NCBI GenBank assembly: GCA_964423265.1
Contig: CAYREF010000002.1
Span: 16,704-80,703, forward strand
Reading direction: 5' to 3'
DNA length: 64,000 bases
Source of the DNA: an uncultured Actinomycetota bacterium
Lineage (GTDB): Bacteria > Actinomycetota > Humimicrobiia > Humimicrobiales > Humimicrobiaceae
The notes below the pieces were generated by a model. It did no database searches, was not told the origin of the DNA, and saw only the letters and a list, made by a program, of their open reading frames with translations. Both the position numbers and the translations under genes were made by a program. Shown piece after piece: positions 4,202 to 41,924 of this stretch; within the stretch, counting starts at the first letter, position 1; every line of letters starts with the position of its first letter.

Positions 4202-5305
4202 ATGAGAGAAAAAAATCCTCCAAAAACTATTGAGAAAATAAAAAGAATAGGGATTTTATGCTGGTCAATTATCGGGCTGTTGTTAATAGTATCTCTCTTC
4301 TTTTATTTAATATACCTGTTAAAAATTGCAATTATTCCTGTAATAATTGCTGCAGCCATAGCTTACCTTCTTACCCCTATGGTTTTGCTTCTCCAGAGAA
4401 AGATGAGGAAAATATTTGCAGTCACCATAACCTATATAATATTTCTAGCCATCATATTTAATTTCTTTTTCTTCTTTATTCCTCTAATCGGAGATCAGTT
4501 AAAGACTTTTCTTGGCAATTTCCCCCAGTATATAGAAAATTTAGATAATATGATAAATGAATTTTTAACTGCTAGTGCATTAATTAAAAATGTTGAAAAT
4601 TTCCTGGGAAAAGATTTTGTACCCGGTAACACTGGAGCAATAACCCAATATTTTTTAAACAGGATAAATGTTGAAGAAATCAATATTTTCCAGCAGGCAA
4701 CTATTTTTACCCGAAACATAATAAATATAGTCCTTAACTTTATCATAGGGCCGATTATAGGCTTCTTTGTCCTAAAAGACACCAGCAGGCTCAGGAGCTT
4801 GTTTATAAAGGTATTTCCAGCAAAGTTCAGGCCGCAAATAGCAGTAATCCTTGACAGGATCAATATGGTTGCCGGGAGGTATATAAGGGGCCAGTTATTG
4901 ATTTCTGTGATTGTGGGTATTTTATGCACAATTGTCCTCCTGGTTCTCAGGGTCGATTTTGCTTTTCTGTTGGGAGGCATTGCCGGCATATTAAACCTGG
5001 TACCATTCCTGGGACCTATATTTGGCGCAATTCCCGCTGCCCTTACTGCCCTGTCTATATCTCCCCTTAAGGCTCTGCTGGTAATTCTTCTTTTTATAGC
5101 TGTCCAACAGATAGACAATTATTTTATAACCCCAACCATTATGAAATACCAGGTAAAAGTACATCCTGCCATAATTATATTCTCCCTTATTGCAGGTGGT
5201 GCATTATTTGGAATGTGGGGGCTTCTTCTGTCAGTGCCTACTGTGGCTATAATTCAGGAGATACTCAAATATTACTTGCTTGAAAAAAGAAATTTAGCAT
5301 CCTGA
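4202..5305 (+). CDS. AI-2E family transporter (UPF0118/PerM-like)
   Basis: 367 aa polytopic membrane protein. The C-terminal GLLLSVPTVAII region and overall topology are typical of the AI-2E family. Confidence 0.7.
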   Translation: MREKNPPKTIEKIKRIGILCWSIIGLLLIVSLFFYLIYLLKIAIIPVIIAAAIAYLLTPMVLLLQRKMRKIFAVTITYIIFLAIIFNFFFFFIPLIGDQLKTFLGNFPQYIENLDNMINEFLTASALIKNVENFLGKDFVPGNTGAITQYFLNRINVEEINIFQQATIFTRNIINIVLNFIIGPIIGFFVLKDTSRLRSLFIKVFPAKFRPQIAVILDRINMVAGRYIRGQLLISVIVGILCTIVLLVLRVDFAFLLGGIAGILNLVPFLGPIFGAIPAALTALSISPLKALLVILLFIAVQQIDNYFITPTIMKYQVKVHPAIIIFSLIAGGALFGMWGLLLSVPTVAIIQEILKYYLLEKRNLAS

Positions 5306-31432: not shown

Positions 31433-32857
31433 TTATTTGCCTATGCAAAACTTACTGAAAATCTGGTCTAACATGTCTTCCCTTGCAGTATCTCCGGTAA
31501 TTTCGCCTAATAAATTTTTAGCAATTTTTAAGTCTGCTGAAGGGAATTCTTCCGACATCTTATCCTCCATTGCTAATTTAGCCTTATTAAGCAACTCTTC
31601 TGCATCCTTTAATAATTTTTTATGTCTATTGTTTATAATTATCTTTTCCTCTATATTTAACTCTTCTCCATCTAATACTATTTCTTTAATTCTGTTCTCC
31701 ATTTTTTCTATTCCAATCCTTTTAGTTGCTGATATTTTTATTACTTTATTTTCACCTAAATATTTTTTTATCTCCCCTTCGTCTAACCTTGCTTTCAAGT
31801 CTACTTTATTGATTGCAATTATTGATTTTTTTCCCTTAATTTTTTGAATTATTTCCTTATCTATGTCTTCTAGCCTTTTGCTAATGTCCATTACACATAT
31901 TACAAGCTCTGCTTCATCTATATGCGTGAGGCTTCTTTCAACCCCTATCTTTTCAATTTTATTCTTAGTCTTCCTAATCCCGGCAGTATCAATTAATATA
32001 AGGGGGATTCCCTTTACATATAGTATTTCTTCAACCGCGTCCCTCGTGGTTCCTGGAATAGGAGTTACTATTGCTTTTTCCTTTCTTGAAAGCAAATTTA
32101 GTAAACTTGACTTTCCGACATTTGGCTTCCCAATAATTGCAACTTTTACTCCGTTTTTTACTATTTCCCCTTTTCCCTCATCTTCAATTAATCTAGACAT
32201 TTCCCACCTTATATCTTGGACATCTTCGGTCAATTTATCATATGGGGTAAGCTCTAAATCTTCTTCTATAAAATCAACTGAGGCTTCTAGCTGAATAAGC
32301 ACATCTGTGATTTTTGAAGCTATTTTTTTTATTTTCCTCTTCACATCTCCTTTTACGTTTTTTGCTGCTATTTTTAAACTTTCTTCTGTTTTTGACCTGA
32401 TTATGTCAATTACAGCTTCCGCTTGTGATAAATCTATTCGTCCATTTAAAAATGCCCTTTTGGTAAACTCCCCAGGCTCTGCTATTCTTGCTCCATTTTC
32501 TATACATAGTTGAAGTATTTTAGATGTAGGTATAATTCCCCCATGGGAATTGATCTCAACTATGTCTTCTCTAGTATAGGAGTTTGGCTCTTTCATATAT
32601 GATACTATTACTTCATCTATTGCATTTCCTTTGTTATCTGTTATATATCCGTAAGTCATTGAAAATGTTTTTAACCACCCTATTTTCCGGTTATTTTTAC
32701 TCTTAAATATCTTATCCACAATTGCTGCAGCTTTACTACCGCTTAGCTTTACTATACCGATAGCCGCCTCACCAGGCCTTGTGCCTATTGCCACTATTGT
32801 ATCTTTATTTATGTTTAGCATTTTTATAGTAATTATTTTTTTTATATTTTTTGCCAC
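31433..32857 (-). CDS. mnmE: tRNA modification GTPase MnmE (TrmE)
   Basis: G-domain motifs GKPNVGKSSLLN and DTAG, with the C-terminal CIGK tetrapeptide. Confidence 0.9.
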   Translation of the reverse strand: MAKNIKKIITIKMLNINKDTIVAIGTRPGEAAIGIVKLSGSKAAAIVDKIFKSKNNRKIGWLKTFSMTYGYITDNKGNAIDEVIVSYMKEPNSYTREDIVEINSHGGIIPTSKILQLCIENGARIAEPGEFTKRAFLNGRIDLSQAEAVIDIIRSKTEESLKIAAKNVKGDVKRKIKKIASKITDVLIQLEASVDFIEEDLELTPYDKLTEDVQDIRWEMSRLIEDEGKGEIVKNGVKVAIIGKPNVGKSSLLNLLSRKEKAIVTPIPGTTRDAVEEILYVKGIPLILIDTAGIRKTKNKIEKIGVERSLTHIDEAELVICVMDISKRLEDIDKEIIQKIKGKKSIIAINKVDLKARLDEGEIKKYLGENKVIKISATKRIGIEKMENRIKEIVLDGEELNIEEKIIINNRHKKLLKDAEELLNKAKLAMEDKMSEEFPSADLKIAKNLLGEITGDTAREDMLDQIFSKFCIGK

Positions 32858-35208: not shown

Positions 35209-35330
35209 TTCTTCCTGCCCTTTTTCCTTCTATTTTTTATTATTCTTTTTCCGGCTTTAGTTTTCATTCTTGCCCTAAAGCCGTGATTTTTCTTCTTTTT
35301 TCTTACTTTTGGCTGATAAGTTCTTTTCAT
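35196..35330 (-). CDS. rpmH: 50S ribosomal protein L34
   Basis: [44 protein letters not shown], 44 aa, with ATG at 35330. The 117-aa ORF in the track is this gene plus upstream read-through. Confidence 0.9.
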
Positions 35331-35765
35331 ATTTGTCCTCAATAAACTATTGTTTCCAATTAGGTTAAGAATTATACATTCTAATTTACCTAATATCAAG
35401 TTTGTCAGCAAACCCAAAATTCTTTTGCCGCCCCTTATTTTCAAACAACTGTTCTTATTCCAGCAAATTATGAAAAATCTGTTTTTTATGACATACAGAA
35501 AATAGTGGGCTTTTTCACTGTTTCCGGAATTTTGCAAAAAAGTTTTCAACAGCTGTGGAAAGAATTGTTAATAACTTTAAAAATCCCGGCTTATAGGGCT
35601 TTCACAGCATGTTAAAACTTGTGTTGATGCTTAATTTTTTCCCATATTTCCGTTTAAAATCCTAAAAGTTTAGCTGTTAATAACTTACTAATATGAAAAG
35701 AATGTGAAAAGGTAATTGATAAAAATGTCTTTAATTAATATAATTTTGTTATTGTTTAAATCAAT

Positions 35766-36605
35766 ATGTTACTGTTTGAAATGGTACAGGAATCATCAAA
35801 TCCAAATCTCAGCTCTGAAAATAAAAGCAATTCTAATACTTCTATACCAGTAAGGATTGCTATTTATGACAATATGCGAAGCATACCCAGGGTAGAGGAA
35901 TACCGTTACGGTAATGTAGCAGACTTTATTAACGAAACCTCACAAAAAACTTATAGCCTTTCCCACGGGATTGGTGGAAAGATTCCCTATACTATAATAA
36001 AAGAGCTGATTGAAAACCTGATACATGCTAATTTTAATGAAATAATTATAACTATCTTAGATAATGGCAATCATATTATTATCTCAGATCAGGGCCCTGG
36101 CATTGACGATAAAAACAAGTCTTTTCTCCCTGGTTACACCTCAGCTACCCAAAGCATGAAGGAATATATAAGGGGGGTTGGTTCAGGGCTCCCTATAGTC
36201 AAAGAAACCATTACTTTTTCTGGAGGCTCCATAAATATTTCAGACAATATTAACTCTGGTACCGTGGTCTCCCTTAGAATAGATACTGCGCAAACCTCAC
36301 CCGGCGATGATGAAGAACCTAAGCCTGCCACTAAGGCAGAAAGCCCGAAAGCAGATGAAAGCTATGAAGAGATATATGATCTTAAACTTTCTGATAGACA
36401 GATAAAAATTATGTCCCTGATATTGGAATTAGAAAACGCGGGTCCTTCAATAATCTCGAATGAGCTTGGCTTCAGCCTTTCTACTTCATACAGGGAACTT
36501 ATTTATCTTGAAAATAAAGGATTTTTAACTTCAAGCAACTCTGGCAAGAGAGCTTTAACCCAAAAAGGCATAAAATATCTTGAATATTATTCGAATAATT
36601 TTTAA
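35766..36605 (+). CDS. GHKL (Bergerat-fold, anti-sigma/His-kinase-like) ATPase domain fused to C-terminal winged-helix DNA-binding domain
   Basis: N-box ELIENLIHAN, G1 box ISDQGPGID, G2 box GVGSGLPIVKE, G3 box SGTVVSLRI, then a wHTH-like segment IMSLILELENAGPSIISNELGFSLSTSYRELIYLENKGFLT. There is no HisKA/DHp domain. Confidence 0.6.
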   Translation: MLLFEMVQESSNPNLSSENKSNSNTSIPVRIAIYDNMRSIPRVEEYRYGNVADFINETSQKTYSLSHGIGGKIPYTIIKELIENLIHANFNEIIITILDNGNHIIISDQGPGIDDKNKSFLPGYTSATQSMKEYIRGVGSGLPIVKETITFSGGSINISDNINSGTVVSLRIDTAQTSPGDDEEPKPATKAESPKADESYEEIYDLKLSDRQIKIMSLILELENAGPSIISNELGFSLSTSYRELIYLENKGFLTSSNSGKRALTQKGIKYLEYYSNNF

Positions 36606-36614
36606 TATTATGAC

Positions 36615-37964
36615 ATGAACAATTTAAATGATTCTTGGGATTTAATTCTAAAAGACATAAAGAGCAGCATTAATACGCCTACCTACAAAACCTGGTTCGA
36701 ACATATTGCCCCTGTTTCTTTAAAAAAAAACTGCTTAACATTGTCTGTAAATAGCGACTTTGCCAAAGAATGGCTCGAAACAAGATATTACAATATTTTA
36801 AATGACTCAGTTAAAAAAAATATCAACCAGGATTGTGAGTTAAAAATAACAGTTGATCCTAGCAACCACAATAGCCACAAAAATAAAGAGCCTGAAACTA
36901 TAGTGGAATCTCAGAAACCTAAAAAAAATTCCAGGGCTGGCCAGTCAATGTTTAATTCCAAATATACCTTTGACACTTTTGTTATCGGCAGCGGTAACCG
37001 GTTTTCCCATGCAGCAGCCCTTGCCGTAAGCGAAAATCCAGGCAAGGCTTACAATCCCCTGTTTATATACGGGGGAGTAGGACTTGGTAAAACCCACCTG
37101 CTTCATGCTATTGGCCAATACATAGGGCAGCTTTACCCAGACATGACTGTAAAATATGTATCTGCAGAAAAGTTTTTAAATGATTTTATTAATGCATTAA
37201 GAGATAAGACAGTTCTTTCATTTAAAGAATATTATAGAAATACAGATGTCCTTCTGGTTGATGATATCCAGTTTTTGGAGGAAAAGGATGCCAGCCAGGA
37301 AGAGTTTTTTCACACTTTTAATACCCTCCATGATACTAACAGACAGATAGTGCTTTCCAGTGATAGAAAGCCCAAAGACATATCCACTCTTGAGGAGAGG
37401 CTTAGGTCCCGTTTTGAGTGGGGCTTAGTTACAGATATCCAGCCTCCCAATTTCGAAACCAGGTTTGCCATCCTTAAAAAATATTCTGAAAGGGAAAAAA
37501 TAATAGTTTCAGACGATATTTTAAATCTTATTGCCAATAGGATTACTTCAAACATAAGAGAGCTTGAAGGGGCGTTAACCAGGATTGTGGCTTTTGCTTC
37601 CTTAACCAGATCTAAACCTGATTTAGGAATAGCTAAAAATGTATTAAAAGATATTCTTCCTGAAGAGGGTGAGCAAAAAATCAACGTGCAGAAAATAATT
37701 AAAGAAGTTTCAAAATATTTTTCCATCCCTATTAGCACCATAGTTGGAAGCAAAAGGAGTAAATTTGTTTCCCATGCAAGACAGATTGCTATGTACCTTT
37801 CCCGGGAGCTAACCAATAACTCCCTGCCAAAAATAGGAAATTATTTTGGCAACAGGGATCATACCACTGTTATTTATGCTGTTTCTAAAATAGCCGATCT
37901 TTTAAATACTGACCAGAGTGTCTACAACCAGATACAGGAAATTACCAATAATTTAAAAAAGTAG
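36615..37964 (+). CDS. dnaA: Chromosomal replication initiator protein DnaA
   Basis: AAA+ Walker A GGVGLGKTHLLHAIG, Walker B LLVDDIQFL, and C-terminal DNA-binding domain (HTTVIYAVSKI). Confidence 0.95.
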   Translation: MNNLNDSWDLILKDIKSSINTPTYKTWFEHIAPVSLKKNCLTLSVNSDFAKEWLETRYYNILNDSVKKNINQDCELKITVDPSNHNSHKNKEPETIVESQKPKKNSRAGQSMFNSKYTFDTFVIGSGNRFSHAAALAVSENPGKAYNPLFIYGGVGLGKTHLLHAIGQYIGQLYPDMTVKYVSAEKFLNDFINALRDKTVLSFKEYYRNTDVLLVDDIQFLEEKDASQEEFFHTFNTLHDTNRQIVLSSDRKPKDISTLEERLRSRFEWGLVTDIQPPNFETRFAILKKYSEREKIIVSDDILNLIANRITSNIRELEGALTRIVAFASLTRSKPDLGIAKNVLKDILPEEGEQKINVQKIIKEVSKYFSIPISTIVGSKRSKFVSHARQIAMYLSRELTNNSLPKIGNYFGNRDHTTVIYAVSKIADLLNTDQSVYNQIQEITNNLKK

Positions 37965-38243
37965 TTTTTTGCCTGTTAACAATTATGTTAATAACTTCCT
38001 TTTTTATCAACAATTGCATTTTATTTCAGTTGATAAAAACACTAATTTTTTTCCCTGTTAAATATCCTTTAATTAACTAACAGGTTTCAACACCTTTATT
38101 AACAGGCAAGTCTTAGCCTTTATAGAGGTTTTGGGTGTTTTTAACAATTTACACACCCTTTATATATTACTACTATATGTTTTAATTATTAATTATATAT
38201 AATAGAATAGTTAATAATCGTATACTTATAAAAAGAGGTTAAT
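37965..38243. promoter_or_regulatory. Candidate oriC (dnaA-dnaN intergenic) with repeated TGTTAA(T/C/A)AA-type boxes and an AT-rich unwinding stretch
   Basis: Boxes in both orientations: cctgttaacaa, atgttaataac, ccctgttaaata, ctaacagg, ttattaacagg, plus ttatcaaca. They are followed by an AT-rich run (atatattactactatatgttttaattattaattatatataatag) immediately before dnaN. Confidence 0.45.
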
Positions 38244-39350
38244 ATGAAAATTCAAACAACAAAATCAAAACTCCTCGATTCAGTTTTGTTTTCTACCAGA
38301 GCTATAACTTCTAAAACTACAAATTATATCCTTGGCGGAGTTATGCTTGAAGCGGATAAAAATTTAAATATTTATAGTACAGATCTTGAAACCAGTGTAA
38401 AAACCAGCATTAATGTAAAAGTTTTAAACGAAGGTAAAATAATAATACCTTCTAAAATTATAATAAATATCCTGCGTAATTTCCCAGAATCAAAAATAGA
38501 TCTGGAGTTAGATCCTGAAACAAACCAGCTTAAAATTACCTGCCAGAACGCAATCTTTAACCTTAACACATTCCCTATAGAAGAATTCCCCCAGTTTCCA
38601 GAAATAAAAAAAGACAATAGCTTTACTATAAAGCTTAATAAATTCAAAACTTTGATAAGAAAAACCCAGAGGTCGGTGTCAGAGGATGAAGGAAGGGTAG
38701 TGCTTACTGGGGTGCGTTGTGAAATAAGCAAAGGCCTAATAAAAATGATATCCACAGATAGCTACAGGCTTTCATATATGGAAGAAAACATAAATATAGG
38801 CGATAGGCAGATAGGAGTAATAATTCCAGGCAAAGTCTTGGATAATATATTAAAAATAGAATCTGAAGACAGCAACTTAGAAATAAATATTGAAGAAAAC
38901 CAGATAAGTTTCGCTATTGTTAATAAAAATTTAAAAACTATTATTGTTTCTAGGCTTCTATCAGGAAAATTTCCGGACCACATGCAACTAGTGCCAAAAA
39001 ACCTAAAAAATTCTATACTAATAAACAAACAAAATATACTGGATGTGGTAAAAAGGATCTCTTCAATTGCCCAGGATAATATTCCTGTAAAATTTGATTT
39101 TTTGGAAGGTAAGTTAAAAGTATCCATGGATATAAAAGAAGTGGGAAGTTCCAGCGAAGAGCTAGAAATACCCTATGGGGAAGAAGAAATAAGTGTAGCA
39201 TTCAATCCCCAGTTTTTACTAGATGGAATTAATATGATAAATGGGGAAAAAATAATATTGGAGATAGATGATCCTTTAAAGCCTGTATTAATAAAATCTG
39301 AAAAAGAACCCAACCTTTTCTATTTGCTTATGCCTATTAGAGTATCTTAA
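38244..39350 (+). CDS. dnaN: DNA polymerase III beta sliding clamp
   Basis: 368 aa with three-domain clamp architecture, directly downstream of dnaA. Confidence 0.9.
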   Translation: MKIQTTKSKLLDSVLFSTRAITSKTTNYILGGVMLEADKNLNIYSTDLETSVKTSINVKVLNEGKIIIPSKIIINILRNFPESKIDLELDPETNQLKITCQNAIFNLNTFPIEEFPQFPEIKKDNSFTIKLNKFKTLIRKTQRSVSEDEGRVVLTGVRCEISKGLIKMISTDSYRLSYMEENINIGDRQIGVIIPGKVLDNILKIESEDSNLEINIEENQISFAIVNKNLKTIIVSRLLSGKFPDHMQLVPKNLKNSILINKQNILDVVKRISSIAQDNIPVKFDFLEGKLKVSMDIKEVGSSSEELEIPYGEEEISVAFNPQFLLDGINMINGEKIILEIDDPLKPVLIKSEKEPNLFYLLMPIRVS

Positions 39351-39371: not shown

Positions 39372-40265
39372 ATGAAAGATTTAAAAATAACCATAGTGGG
39401 AGCTGGTAGAGTAGGAACAACCATTGCTTATGTTTTAGCAAAAAATAGAAATACTAAGGCAAAACTCAACTGTATTGTAAGCAGGACCGAAAAGTCGCTA
39501 AAAAGGGCAAAAGATTTAGTGGGGGAGAGAGGAATAACATATAGTAAAGATATTAATGGCTTACTAAAACAATCAAACTGTATATTAATAACTACCCCAG
39601 ATGATCTAATCGAGGATATATGTAATGATATATTTACCAATAGCCCAAAAAAAGAAGGAACTTTTGTAATACATTTTAGCGGCTCAAAATCTTTAGATGT
39701 GTTAAGTGCTGCCAAACAAAAGGGAGCTGATACCGGTTGCCTACATCCTATAAAATCATTTGCTTCCATAAAAGAGGCAATATCAACTCTTAAAGGTACT
39801 GTATTCGGGATTACTTATTCTAGCCAGGAAATAAAAGAGGTCCTAGCTTATTTGGTTGATTTTTTCGGAGGCTCTTTTATAGAAGTAGAAAACGACAAAA
39901 AACCCCTGTACCATTCATCTGCATGTGTTGCTTCCAATTATCTGGTTACATTGTTAAATTTTGCAGTTGAGGTTAATGAAAAAATTGGCATAAAACCCGA
40001 GGATTCTGTAAAAGCTTTAATGGGTCTTATAGAGGGAACAATTGATAATATTAAGAAAATGGGAACAAAAAAATCACTAACTGGCCCCATAGCAAGAGGG
40101 GATGTGGGGACAATTGAAGAACATTTAAAAAATTTTAAGCAATATTTTGACAAAGGCTCTAAAACCTATAAATTTATGGGAAAAGAAACTGCAAACATAG
40201 CTTATCAAAACGGCTGGATTGACAGGGATACATTTGAAAAATTAAAAAAAATACTAGAAGGTTAG
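39372..40265 (+). CDS. Rossmann-fold plus DUF2520-like oxidoreductase, putative ketopantoate reductase (PanG-type)
   Basis: N-terminal dinucleotide-binding motif ITIVGAGRVGTTIA, 297 aa, immediately upstream of panBCD. Confidence 0.55.
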   Translation: MKDLKITIVGAGRVGTTIAYVLAKNRNTKAKLNCIVSRTEKSLKRAKDLVGERGITYSKDINGLLKQSNCILITTPDDLIEDICNDIFTNSPKKEGTFVIHFSGSKSLDVLSAAKQKGADTGCLHPIKSFASIKEAISTLKGTVFGITYSSQEIKEVLAYLVDFFGGSFIEVENDKKPLYHSSACVASNYLVTLLNFAVEVNEKIGIKPEDSVKALMGLIEGTIDNIKKMGTKKSLTGPIARGDVGTIEEHLKNFKQYFDKGSKTYKFMGKETANIAYQNGWIDRDTFEKLKKILEG

Positions 40266-40273
40266 GTGTAAAT

Positions 40274-41074
40274 ATGGCTGAAAAAATAAATATAAACAGG
40301 CTTATGGAAATGAAGTCAAACAGCGAAAAGATAACCATGCTAACTGCATATGACTACCTTATGGCTTCCCAGCTCGACGAATGTGGTATAGATTTAATAT
40401 TGGTGGGGGATTCGGTGGGAAACGTAGTTATAGGTTATGAAAACACCATCCCGGTAACCATGGATGAAATGATACACCACTGCAAGGCAGTAAAAAGAGG
40501 TGTAAAAAGAGCAATGGTAATAGGAGATATGCCTTTTATGTCTTACCAGGTCAGCAGCAAGGAAGCAGTAAAAAACGCAGGGAGGTTTCTAAAAGAGTCC
40601 GGGGTAGAAGCAATTAAGCTTGAGGGCGGAAAAGAAGTGCTTGGCACTATTAAAAAAATTGTAGATGCGGGAATACCGGTTATGGGCCATCTAGGGTTAA
40701 CCCCACAGTCTATCCATAAATTTGGCGGATATGGGGTAAGAGGTGAAAGCAACAAAGAAGCTCAAAAAATGGTAGAGGACGCAAAAGAGCTAGAGTCTGC
40801 CGGAGTTTTTTCCATAGTTTTAGAAAAAGTTCCTGCCCAATTAGCCAAAAAAATTACAGAGCAAATTAGTGTTCCCACTATTGGGATTGGGGCAGGAGTT
40901 TTTTGTGATGGGCAAGTACTTGTAACCCATGATATGCTGGGCCTGTTTGAAAAATTTAAGCCCAAGTTTTCTAAAAGGTATGCAGAATTGGGAAAAGAAA
41001 TGAAGGCATGCTATAAAAAGTACATACAAGAAGTTAAAGACAAGAAGTTTCCTGCTGAGGAGCACTCATACTAA
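40274..41074 (+). CDS. panB: 3-methyl-2-oxobutanoate hydroxymethyltransferase
   Basis: KITMLTAYDYLMASQLDECGIDLILVGDSVGNVVIGY is the classical PanB N-terminus. Confidence 0.9.
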   Translation: MAEKININRLMEMKSNSEKITMLTAYDYLMASQLDECGIDLILVGDSVGNVVIGYENTIPVTMDEMIHHCKAVKRGVKRAMVIGDMPFMSYQVSSKEAVKNAGRFLKESGVEAIKLEGGKEVLGTIKKIVDAGIPVMGHLGLTPQSIHKFGGYGVRGESNKEAQKMVEDAKELESAGVFSIVLEKVPAQLAKKITEQISVPTIGIGAGVFCDGQVLVTHDMLGLFEKFKPKFSKRYAELGKEMKACYKKYIQEVKDKKFPAEEHSY

Positions 41075-41075
41075 C

Positions 41076-41924
41076 ATGGAGACAATTGAAAAAATCAATC
41101 AGCTTCAAAAAAAGCTGCAGAAGCTAAAAAAGCAGGGCAAAACTGTAGGGTTTGTCCCCACCATGGGATACCTCCACCCAGGCCATTTAAGCTTAATGGA
41201 GCTGGCCAGCAAGGAAAACGATATAGTGGTTATAAGCATATTTGTAAACCCTACCCAGTTCGGTCCTTCGGAAGACTATGAAAAATATCCCCGGGATATG
41301 GAAAGGGACTCAAAATTAGCAGAAGAAGCGGGGGTAGATTATATTTTCCATCCCTCAAATGAGGAGATGTATAGAAAGGACCACAAGACATATGTAAATG
41401 TGGAGGATCTGGAAAGCGTTATGTGTGGGAAGTTCAGGCCCGGCCACTTCAGGGGAGTTTGTACTGTAGTCCTAAAGCTTTTAAATATAGTGTGCCCTAC
41501 CAGGGCTTATTTCGGCAAAAAGGATTACCAGCAGCTGGTGATTATAAAAAAGATGGCCGAAGATCTAAACTTGGATGTTGATATTATTGGGGGCGATATT
41601 GTTAGGGAAAAAGACAATCTGGCATTAAGCTCCCGCAACAAATACTTATCAACAGAAGAAAGAAAAAATGCTACTGTATTATATAAAAGTCTCAAGCTTG
41701 CCGAAAATTTAATAAAAGAGGGGAAAACAGCAGGCAAGGTAAAAAAAGAGGCCATAAATTATTTAAAAAGCAATAAATATGTAAAAAAAGTAGATTATTT
41801 TGACATTAGGGAAAAAGACAACCTGAAGGAAGTAAGAGGCATTCCTTCCAGGGAAGTATTAGCAGCTGCCGCCATATGGACTGGCAACACCAGGCTGATA
41901 GATAATATAATAGTAAAAAGGTGA
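41076..41924 (+). CDS. panC: Pantoate--beta-alanine ligase
   Basis: GFVPTMGYLHPGHLSLM HIGH-type motif. Confidence 0.9.
   Translation: METIEKINQLQKKLQKLKKQGKTVGFVPTMGYLHPGHLSLMELASKENDIVVISIFVNPTQFGPSEDYEKYPRDMERDSKLAEEAGVDYIFHPSNEEMYRKDHKTYVNVEDLESVMCGKFRPGHFRGVCTVVLKLLNIVCPTRAYFGKKDYQQLVIIKKMAEDLNLDVDIIGGDIVREKDNLALSSRNKYLSTEERKNATVLYKSLKLAENLIKEGKTAGKVKKEAINYLKSNKYVKKVDYFDIREKDNLKEVRGIPSREVLAAAAIWTGNTRLIDNIIVKR

Follow-up and report, generated by a model that had tools for sequence, protein, structure and literature searches.

A 64-kb stretch of contig CAYREF010000002.1 from an uncultured Actinomycetota bacterium (Humimicrobiaceae), referred to here as the window, carries dnaA between two non-coding spacers in which the word TGTTAATAAC recurs. 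We consider this locus very probably to be the chromosomal origin of replication (oriC) of an AT-rich actinobacterium of the Ca. Humimicrobiia type, with the TGTTAATAAC repeats, which read TTATTAACA on the other strand, serving as its DnaA boxes. The element is of a well-known kind and is unusual in that most of its boxes carry A for the textbook C. The assignment follows from the enrichment of the words, their constraint pattern, their interchange with canonical boxes, their conservation in the closest genome, an adjoining unwinding module, the spacing of the boxes, the strand skew and the base contacts of DnaA domain IV. The anatomy, conservation, enrichment and skew of the locus are directly seen, and from them we infer DnaA binding, unwinding and regulation at this site.

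The repeated words as candidate DnaA boxes

The spacer on the rpmH side (intergenic region 1, IGR1; 35331-35765, 435 nt) and the dnaA-dnaN spacer (IGR2; 37965-38243, 279 nt) are 72-77% AT and together make up 714 nt, or 1.1% of the window. All three copies of TGTTAATAAC in the 64 kb (35566, 35675 and 37986) fall inside them, where 0.29 +/- 0.59 would be expected from 100 dinucleotide-preserving shuffles, none of which reached three. Each copy extends to the exact 12-mer TGTTAATAACTT on the + strand (35566-35577, 35675-35686 and 37986-37997), and the original prediction, which had placed these copies at about 35567, 35670 and 37984, was right to within 1-5 nt. Its 12-mer unit did not hold up to the same extent: because the CTT flank is not kept in the closest genome, in which the third copy reads TGTTAATAACCT (CTT to CCT, box unchanged), the unit under conservation is, on this comparison, a 9-10-mer. 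The other words quoted at the time are all present, namely CCTGTTAACAA at 37972, CCCTGTTAAATA at 38053, CTAACAGG at 38076, TTATTAACAGG at 38096, ctgtggaaa at 35553 (box 2 below) and ttatcaaca at 38004 (b3 below). In either orientation, TGTTAATAA/TTATTAACA occurs five times in the window, four times within the spacers and once within dnaN at 38918, while the sole perfect TTATCCACA lies at 32712 within mnmE. Position weight matrix (PWM) scores of 11 bits or more are reached at 16 sites of the window, eight of which lie within the 714 nt of spacer.

Could an AT-rich word simply recur by chance in AT-rich non-coding DNA? The composition of the spacers would allow for this, and with one mismatch permitted the 12-mer reaches three copies in 13 of 100 shuffles, but the shuffle result for the exact 10-mer and the densities in relatives refute it, and we give it practically no credence. 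A metagenome scan yielded 80 related loci (Actinomycetota, Ca. Humimicrobiia-like), in whose two spacers the box pattern has a density of 9.35 per kb; the figure for other intergenic DNA is 0.62 and that for coding DNA 0.42 per kb (Fisher p = 5e-61). It is thus 15-fold commoner in the spacers than in other intergenic DNA of the same genomes, and box positions are conserved over ~60 loci.

An unsupervised k-mer count over 55 IGR1 and 40 IGR2 sequences of relatives placed TTTTCAACA (100 copies, 38-fold enriched) and TTATTAACA (84, 29-fold) among its top words, together with TTTTCCACA (50, 27-fold), TTTTAAACA (44, 29-fold) and TTATCAACA (41, 22-fold). Canonical words are enriched too, TTATCCACA reaching 17.5-fold alongside the value for TTTTCCACA. 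In a single-substitution scan, positions 1, 2, 4, 7, 8 and 9 proved essentially fixed, whereas both A and T are found at position 3, both A and C at position 6, and all of C, T and A at position 5. What characterises the clade spacers is an asymmetric 9-mer, TTWT[C/T/A][A>C]ACA, which has its fixed bases, TT.T..ACA, in common with the DnaA box. The refined matrix, (G/T)TTWT[CTA][A 0.83/C 0.17]ACA(G), corresponds to TTWTNCACA with position 6 relaxed, and the family consensus departs from the textbook box at that position alone. TTATTAACA itself has one mismatch to TTWTNCACA and, as had been noted at the outset, two to TTATCCACA.

These words are not only clustered by dnaA but also sit at conserved sites where they exchange with canonical boxes. 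From one relative to the next, an orthologous site may read TTATTAACA, TTTTCCACA or a perfect TTATCCACA, and in locus L146 the site corresponding to the first TGTTAATAAC copy reads TGTGGATAAC-TTTAAAAT, compared with TGTTAATAAC-TTTAAAAAT in the window, the flank being identical. The closest genome, GCA_051744245.1 (locus L161), shares ~93% identity over both spacers; 1 of 108 box nucleotides has changed between the two, against 47 of 606 non-box spacer nucleotides (p = 0.003), and this lone change, TTGTTAACA to TTATTAACA, is toward the consensus. Across the clade, boxes in the same orientation are separated by 3 bp (n=45), 13 bp (n=19) or 0 bp (n=7) and head-to-head boxes by 2 bp (n=41), with a median of 4 boxes in IGR1 and 5.5 in IGR2. 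Enrichment, constraint pattern, canonical interchange and conservation in the closest genome all argue for the original proposal that the repeats are DnaA boxes.

A gene for a protein with a GHKL ATPase domain and a winged helix-turn-helix (wHTH) lies between the upstream cluster and dnaA, and the repeats might instead be operators of this co-encoded protein. A winged-helix protein is indeed encoded between both clusters in every relative, and the three copies share three extra bases (CTT) beyond the 9-mer box. This reading is nevertheless highly improbable and we have rejected it, as the word is constrained in the manner of a DnaA box, relatives have canonical DnaA boxes in its place at orthologous sites, the CTT flank is lost even in the closest relative, and a box module containing TGTTAATAA occurs in genomes with no GHKL-wHTH gene beside dnaA. 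The sites are, moreover, asymmetric 9-mers in arrays typical of DnaA and lie inside a box and trio module.

Further support for an origin comes from the skew. Cumulative GC skew over the 64-kb window has its minimum at 37-39 kb, the inflection that had been proposed as a test, and gene orientation flips at the locus. Across the locus the GC skew of + strand genes rises from 0.087 to 0.196 and that of - strand genes from -0.211 to -0.006, with GC skew at third codon positions (GC3) moving in the same direction within strand classes. Because the shift holds within each class of gene strand, the switch is not merely a transcription-strand effect. Together with the box, trio and AT-rich module next to dnaN, this switch bears out the identification of the locus as oriC.

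Architecture of the two spacers and the possible role of the upstream cluster

Both clusters are best understood from their individual boxes. IGR2 holds about ten in the window. Box b1, TTGTTAACA (37974..37982, - strand, within CCTGTTAACAA), becomes TTATTAACA in the closest genome and lies 3 bp from b2, the third TTATTAACA copy (37986..37994, -), in the same orientation. These are followed by b3, TTATCAACA (38004..38012, +; 11.0 bits), whose orthologous positions mostly read TTTTTAACA or TTATTAACA, and by the degenerate b4, AGTTGATAA, i.e. TTATCAACT (38028..38036, -), where the aligned column has the consensus ttGTT.A.AA, relatives showing TGTTAATAA or TGTTTAAAA. The weak b5, TATTTAACA (38056..38064, -, within CCCTGTTAAATA), is often TTTTAAACA or TTATTAACA in relatives. 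The pair b6 GTTTCAACA and b7 TTATTAACA (38084..38104, +, TTATTAACAGG; 11.2 and 12.8 bits) has a 3-bp gap, and the b7 position is occupied by TTATTAACA 12 times, by TTATCAACA 5 times and by TTATCCACA twice.

At the dnaN-proximal end of IGR2, bA TTTTTAACA and bB ATTTACACA abut on the + strand (38138..38155) and would form the platform of an unwinding module. The abutting pair is kept in all 30 aligned IGR2 sequences, with the consensus TTATTAACA|TTATCAACA. It is followed by a G/C cluster, CCC (38156..38158), represented by GGCA, GGTA or ACCC in relatives and by AGAC or GCCC in Bacillaceae, and then, 8 nt past bB, by candidate DnaA-trios (38164..38175, - strand) that read ATA TTA CTA CTA on the + strand, or 3'-TAT AAT GAT GAT-5'. 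This trio block, AtTAtTACTa.CTATTT, is the most conserved part of IGR2. Beyond it lies an AT-rich stretch (38165..38230), a predicted unwinding element that contains the conserved block TATA-TAATAaAATA and overlaps a dnaN promoter-like TATATAAT. The AT content amounts to 89% over 38160-38230, as the earlier mention of an unwinding-like stretch before dnaN had implied, and to 87-97% in 30-nt windows at 38165-38224 (90-97% at 38165-38214), compared with 64% for the whole window. The order of abutting boxes, G/C cluster, TTA/CTA repeats, TATA-rich stretch, ribosome-binding site and dnaN start is the same in 30/30 aligned sequences, and the module can be recognised in distantly related loci with a GHKL gene as well, GC-rich ones among them.

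In Bacillus subtilis the basal unwinding system (BUS; Richardson 2016/2019, Pelliciari 2021) comprises DnaA-boxes 6/7, DnaA-trios and an AT-rich 27-mer (PMC6669920, PMC8287927), and follows the rule of a box, a spacer of <=16 bp (mostly 13) and >=3 trios of the form 3'-NAN-5', with GAT the commonest (PMC8287927). The window conforms to this rule, its trios being separated from bB by 8 nt and from bA by 17 nt, and the clade consensus has the boxes followed by GGCA and TTA TTA TTA CTA CTA, with a 13-bp spacer from the first box. Orientation matters in this system, as reversal of boxes 6/7 inactivates B. subtilis incC (PMC6669920). In the window the strand of the boxes relative to the trios is as in the Bacillaceae loci L002 and L006, and the AT-rich region lies beyond the trios. 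The Bacillaceae module reads, on the same strand, cTTATCCACA|TATCCACA|AGAC|CTACTACTATTACTACTA|T-rich|dnaN, with the abutting pair TTATCCACA|TATCCACA.

The upstream spacer is organised differently, the alignments (24 IGR1 and 30 IGR2 sequences) placing the unwinding module in IGR2 only. Box 1, TTTTCAACA (35543..35551, +), is the window's best PWM hit at 19.5 bits and opens a triple-box module (35543-35574) in which a box, 2 bp, an inverted box, 3 bp and a further box succeed each other. Its orthologous position holds TTTTCAACA and TTTTCCACA nine times each, TTATTAACA three times and TTATCAACA twice. Box 2, CTTTCCACA (35554..35562, -), stands head-to-head with box 1 and its aligned position reads TTTTCAACA 11 times, TTTTCCACA 6 times and a perfect TTATCCACA 3 times. 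Box 3 (35566..35574, -), the first TGTTAATAAC copy, is oriented as box 2 and alternates between TTTTCAACA (12) and TTATTAACA (10). Further downstream, box 4, the second TTATTAACA copy (35675..35683, -; 16.3 bits), is placed 33 nt upstream of the -35 element of the promoter of the GHKL-wHTH/dnaA operon; this position carries TTTTCAACA 15 times and TTATCAACA 3 times, among others, and never the canonical C form.

Both predicted promoters are strong. That of the GHKL-wHTH/dnaA operon (35716..35744, +) and the divergent rpmH promoter (35371..35399, -) both read TTGATA-17-TATAAT and match 11 of 12 consensus positions. The rpmH promoter core, ATTATACATT, is a conserved alignment block found in 39 related IGR1 sequences and not once in 620 kb of background. 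Just upstream of the operon's -35 element is a direct repeat of period 11, TGAAAAG-N4-TGAAAAG (35694..35711, +), which is kept in all aligned relatives with the consensus gAAAGaaa.TGAAAAg. A second conserved element, CAAACA-NN-TGTTC (TTTCAAACA AC TGTTCTTAT; 35439..35458), is present in 40 of 58 IGR1 sequences, while 634 kb of other sequence contains it 8 times. Like boxes 1 and 2, the element has the head-to-head ACA-NN-TGT geometry with a 2-bp gap, although its box matches are poor, and is probably a pair of weak DnaA boxes, the alternative being a site for another factor. An operator tied to the GHKL gene was rejected, as only the close clade has the element and the distant loci with a GHKL gene lack it.

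Between ~35600 and 35650, most relatives (e.g. L088, L103 and L084) possess a further promoter-like sequence on the + strand, ATGTCA-N17-TATAAT with TAGTAGCTTTTT after it, which is absent in the window and in the L097 group. It lies upstream of box 4, which in most relatives is therefore located between two promoters. The dnaA gene of Escherichia coli likewise has a box placed between two promoters. TAGTAG repeats in IGR1 of relatives, absent in the window, were considered as a second set of trios and discarded, as the closest box in the right orientation is ~36 nt away; the repeats probably indicate where a transcript from an upstream promoter begins.

We propose the following mechanism for initiation at this locus. 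DnaA would bind paired boxes of three kinds: like-oriented with a 3-bp gap, head-to-head with a 2-bp gap, and directly abutting. The abutting boxes at 38138-38155 would nucleate a DnaA-ATP oligomer, which may then spread across the G/C cluster to the trios (38164-38175, - strand 3'-AAT GAT GAT-5') and, once bound there, open the 90-97% AT stretch just upstream of dnaN, as in the basal unwinding system of B. subtilis. The upstream cluster (35543-35574 with box 4 at 35675), lying between the divergent rpmH and GHKL-dnaA promoters, would most probably allow DnaA to autoregulate its operon, and may also aid origin firing through looping.

Several observations weigh against this reading of the locus. 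The skew minimum is seen over 64 kb of the genome only. The trio run in the window is short, with 4 in-frame trios beginning 8 nt after the second box and 17 after the first, and bB and several other IGR2 boxes are degenerate in this genome. The AT-rich stretch is also the dnaN promoter region, and because it doubles in this way its conservation is not specific evidence for unwinding. The upstream triple-box cluster is present also in genomes such as Mycobacterium, so that an origin-firing role for it is something the cluster may have and which its presence alone does not establish. To our knowledge, the characterised actinobacterial origins (Mycobacterium, Streptomyces) consist of the dnaA-dnaN spacer alone, their upstream boxes being autoregulatory.

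It is this last point that bears on the term 'bipartite' in the original prediction. The GHKL-dnaA operon does have a conserved box cluster on either side, with dnaA between the two, and to that extent the description is apt, but the word exceeds the evidence and we use it for architectural resemblance only. The triple-box module was found in 22 of 80 unrelated loci from the GTDB, mostly 90-300 nt upstream of dnaA (carriers include L005, L009, L013, L018-L023, L028, L030, L050, L067, L070 and L079). Besides the Humimicrobiia-like loci, those sharing it belong to Gaiellales, Pseudonocardiaceae, Mycobacterium (L079), Clostridia, a Negativicute and Geothermincola, among others, and the module has the appearance of an old operator upstream of dnaA, common to Actinomycetota and Bacillota. 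Because Mycobacterium, Pseudonocardiaceae and Gaiellales also have the module, an upstream cluster does not by itself establish a bipartite origin.

The alternative that IGR2 alone is oriC, and that the rpmH-side cluster (35540-35700 included) is purely an autoregulatory operator of the (GHKL-)dnaA promoter, is accordingly a strong contender to which we would assign a little less than an even chance. It differs from our preferred explanation solely in the role of the upstream cluster. The distribution of the triple-box module and what is known of actinobacterial origins favour it, as do the position of the cluster between two strong divergent promoters, with box 4 close to a -35 element, and the restriction of the unwinding module to IGR2. 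Conversely, relatives retain a median of four conserved boxes in IGR1 plus the weak CAAACA-NN-TGTTC pair, and two-sided clusters have been described in B. subtilis, Helicobacter pylori and Clostridioides difficile (PMC6669920, PMC8235120, PMC7561715). The most economical reading is that firing takes place in IGR2 and that IGR1 is the ancestral dnaA operator and promoter, the GHKL-wHTH gene having entered its leader. By analogy with B. subtilis, for which looping has been proposed (PMC6669920), IGR1 may also have an auxiliary role of this sort.

The locus can be compared with several known origins. It resembles in architecture that of B. subtilis, in which incA/incB lie upstream of dnaA and incC between dnaA and dnaN (PMC6669920, PMC8287927); clusters on both sides of dnaA and a dnaN-proximal module of the same order and strand are common to both. 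B. subtilis belongs to the Bacillota, however, whereas the present locus is actinobacterial, has ~80% boxes with A at position 6 and is known from sequence alone. Here, moreover, the GHKL-wHTH gene sits between the upstream cluster and dnaA, which is why the clusters are ~2.3 kb apart. The origin of Thermoanaerobacter tengcongensis, which contains CCTGTTGATAACTTAAA (PMC2887958), resembles the window in that position 6 is not fixed as C, in TGTTGATAA boxes with a CTT/AAC-type flank (CCTGTTGATAACTTAAA), in pairs 3 bp apart and in low GC. It belongs to another phylum, and its origin and AT-cluster unwinding are placed in the rpmH-dnaA spacer, in contrast to the dnaA-dnaN location of the module here; position 5 is here also T or A.

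In Streptomyces and Mycobacterium, oriC occupies the dnaA-dnaN spacer with TTGTCCACA-type boxes, and further DnaA boxes occur at the dnaA promoter. These classical actinobacterial origins share with ours the phylum, the location by dnaA-dnaN and the triple-box module (L079 from Mycobacterium, L022, L050 and L070). They differ in having GC-rich boxes with C at position 6 (PMC5043019 gives the consensus YWRTCCACA), where the present ones are AT-rich with A, and in having no gene between the upstream boxes and dnaA. H. pylori has a bipartite origin, oriC1/oriC2, flanking dnaA and a species-specific box, TCATTCACN, and variation in helix 5 of its DnaA has been discussed as the cause of this shift (PMC5043019, PMC8235120). 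Likenesses are the two clusters split by dnaA, the shifted box consensus and a module of box and trios. In H. pylori, though, the shift concerns positions 2 and 5, with the TTCAC core kept, and both sub-origins were tested experimentally. The analysis shows that a Bacillus-type box and trio module and an upstream triple-box operator are common to Bacillota and deep Actinomycetota, and it provides a well-supported map of boxes, spacing rules, unwinding module and promoters for the origin of an actinobacterial class known solely from metagenomes.

Adenine at position 6 and the DnaA protein

The dnaA gene (36615..37964, +) encodes a protein that matches TIGR00362 with 567 bits, contains the Pfam domains DnaA_N, Bac_DnaA and Bac_DnaA_C, and can be aligned over its full length with B. 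subtilis DnaA (8BTG). Of the six E. coli domain IV residues listed as contacting bases (PMC2533591, PMC7561715), five are kept (R399, P423, D433, H434 and T435) and His439 is replaced by Tyr. All DnaA proteins of the clade carry RDH[T/S/A]TV[I/L]YA and [S/A]HAR, whereas distant GHKL-bearing loci have His and FPR. Domain IV (residues ~385-432) thus differs in the clade by more than the loss of His439, the second motif reading [S/A]-H-A-R where E. coli has A-R-P-R and B. subtilis A-F-P-R. Thr435 is Ser or Ala in many DnaA proteins of the clade.

Boxes with A at position 6 (A-type) make up ~80% of clade boxes, and the share holds over 27-45% GC (Spearman rho = -0.19, p = 0.13). Even L083, at 45% GC, has nine A-type boxes and one with C (C-type). 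AT-richness alone can therefore be dismissed as the cause, the AT-rich L146 keeping canonical boxes while the A-type share stays at ~0.8 from one end of the GC range to the other. One may ask instead whether DnaA of this clade evolved a true preference for A at position 6 through its domain IV, with Tyr at His439 and His-Ala at Arg405-Pro406. In favour of such a change are the constancy of the A-type share, the distant GHKL-bearing loci L152 and L153 having mostly C-type boxes at 44-45% GC, as well as the divergence of the domain IV motifs from the His and FPR of the distant loci. Boxes 3, 4 and bA, furthermore, are practically never C-type, while about half of the boxes at positions 1 and 2 are.

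The protein evidence nonetheless makes this explanation unlikely. Tyr is also found at this position in Mycobacterium, Nocardioides and other high-GC actinobacterial loci with C-type boxes, and Epsilonproteobacteria vary at H439 (K/H/Y) yet keep the position-6 C (PMC5043019). In the opposite direction, DnaA proteins with His use A-type boxes: TGTTAATAA serves as a box of the triple-box module in a Clostridia metagenome-assembled genome (MAG; L013), Anaerovibrio (L067) and Ca. Geothermincola (L028), TTTTCAACA adjoins the trios in L152 and L156, and A-at-position-6 words are 5.5-fold enriched around dnaA in 14 Bacillota loci, mostly of low GC. The box consensus of T. tengcongensis is TTATCNACA, and binding was demonstrated on TGTTGATAA in an electrophoretic mobility shift assay with TGTTGATAA-GCC-TGTGGATAA (Pei et al. 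2007, PMC1888806); this DnaA requires two neighbouring boxes, the assayed pair being 3 bp apart (PMC1888806). Canonical boxes, moreover, stay enriched and interchangeable in the clade, and the correlation between protein and DNA is drawn from very few independent lineages. The replacement of His439 by Tyr was consequently rejected as a sufficient cause.

The repeats cannot, for these reasons, be called lineage-specific as the original prediction had done, since the form is not confined to the lineage; the peculiarity of the clade lies in the proportion of A-type boxes and not in their kind. The bias looks like a clade habit, which may be due to inheritance, to classes of affinity or to a modestly altered preference. 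A broader and likewise improbable conjecture would couple two ideas: that DnaA has evolved a preference for A at position 6, making the C-type boxes 1 and 2 a distinct affinity class, and that the GHKL-wHTH protein is an undescribed regulator of replication initiation, which might act at the origin, for example via the TGAAAAG repeat or CAAACA-NN-TGTTC. On a practical level, software that locates origins by counting nothing but TTATCCACA-like words with a C in sixth place will rate these origins too low, and TTWTHMACA could be added for the class.

The GHKL-wHTH gene and the surroundings of the probable origin

The more unusual feature of the locus is the GHKL-wHTH gene rather than the boxes. 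It spans 35766..36605 on the + strand (Pfam HATPase_c, E = 9e-13; wHTH hits below threshold), and its true start is probably the ATG at 35781, because relatives begin at the position of M6. The protein, 274-279 residues long in the window and its relatives (L081-L161), combines an N-terminal beta/alpha region, a GHKL ATPase domain in which the N, G1 and G2 boxes are conserved, and, at its C terminus, a winged helix. Its AlphaFold2 model has a mean predicted local distance difference test (pLDDT) score of 58.8 and is confident solely in the C-terminal wHTH. Searches of NCBIfam and PDB sequences returned only generic matches to histidine-kinase and MutL ATPase domains, without a specific family. 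The HATPase_c protein has more than 1500 homologues, those with names coming from Actinomycetota MAGs, Ca. Hydromicrobium and Ca. Humimicrobiaceae (class Ca. Humimicrobiia).

As first described, the gene lies inside the origin arrangement: dnaA follows directly 3' of it in all 63 loci that could be tested (median gap 12 nt; 9 nt in the window), and rpmH is divergent upstream in 53 of 55. The window has no promoter comparable to that at 35716..35744 between the GHKL stop and the dnaA start, and the gene appears to be co-transcribed with dnaA. None of the 80 GTDB outgroup loci, by comparison, has a GHKL-wHTH homologue beside dnaA. It is this gene, lodged within the transcription unit of dnaA across the whole clade, and not the boxes, that poses the larger question.

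Exact look-ups of the window's DnaA and GHKL proteins returned no record. A contig scan with DnaA (universal peptide QEEFFHTF) gave, among the matches listed, no relative above 58% identity, and these loci were kept as outgroups. A search of the spacers against Rfam found no structural RNA at E <= 1.

Pfam domains confirm the flanking genes. On the - strand, a block with the gene order mnmE, jag, yidC, yidD, rnpA, rpmH ends at 35330 and encodes L34, the RNase P protein, YidD, YidC and Jag, while HATPase_c, DnaA and DnaN domains are found on the + strand. The dnaN gene (38244..39350, +) has three Pfam beta-clamp domains. The usual neighbourhood beyond dnaN is recF-gyrB, which is replaced here by genes for a DUF2520/Rossmann-like protein, panB and panC (39372-41924).

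Some relatives carry insertions in the origin spacers. IGR1 of L137 and L139 contains G/C-rich inverted repeats, CCCCTCCCC...GGGGAGGGG, which look like a small mobile element, and L098 and L099 have ~200 extra nt at the beginning of IGR2. In the window, isolated good boxes also occur within genes near the origin, comprising TTATCAACAG in panC at 41646 (14.9 bits) in addition to the copies of TTATTAACA in dnaN and TTATCCACA in mnmE given above. Further away, four box-pattern words (4317, 4591, 4653 and 4800) lie in a 490-nt span inside the gene for an AI-2E family transporter (4202-5305). They are denser there than in coding DNA elsewhere, which could be an artefact of the codon usage of a membrane protein or could reflect a secondary cluster bound by DnaA.

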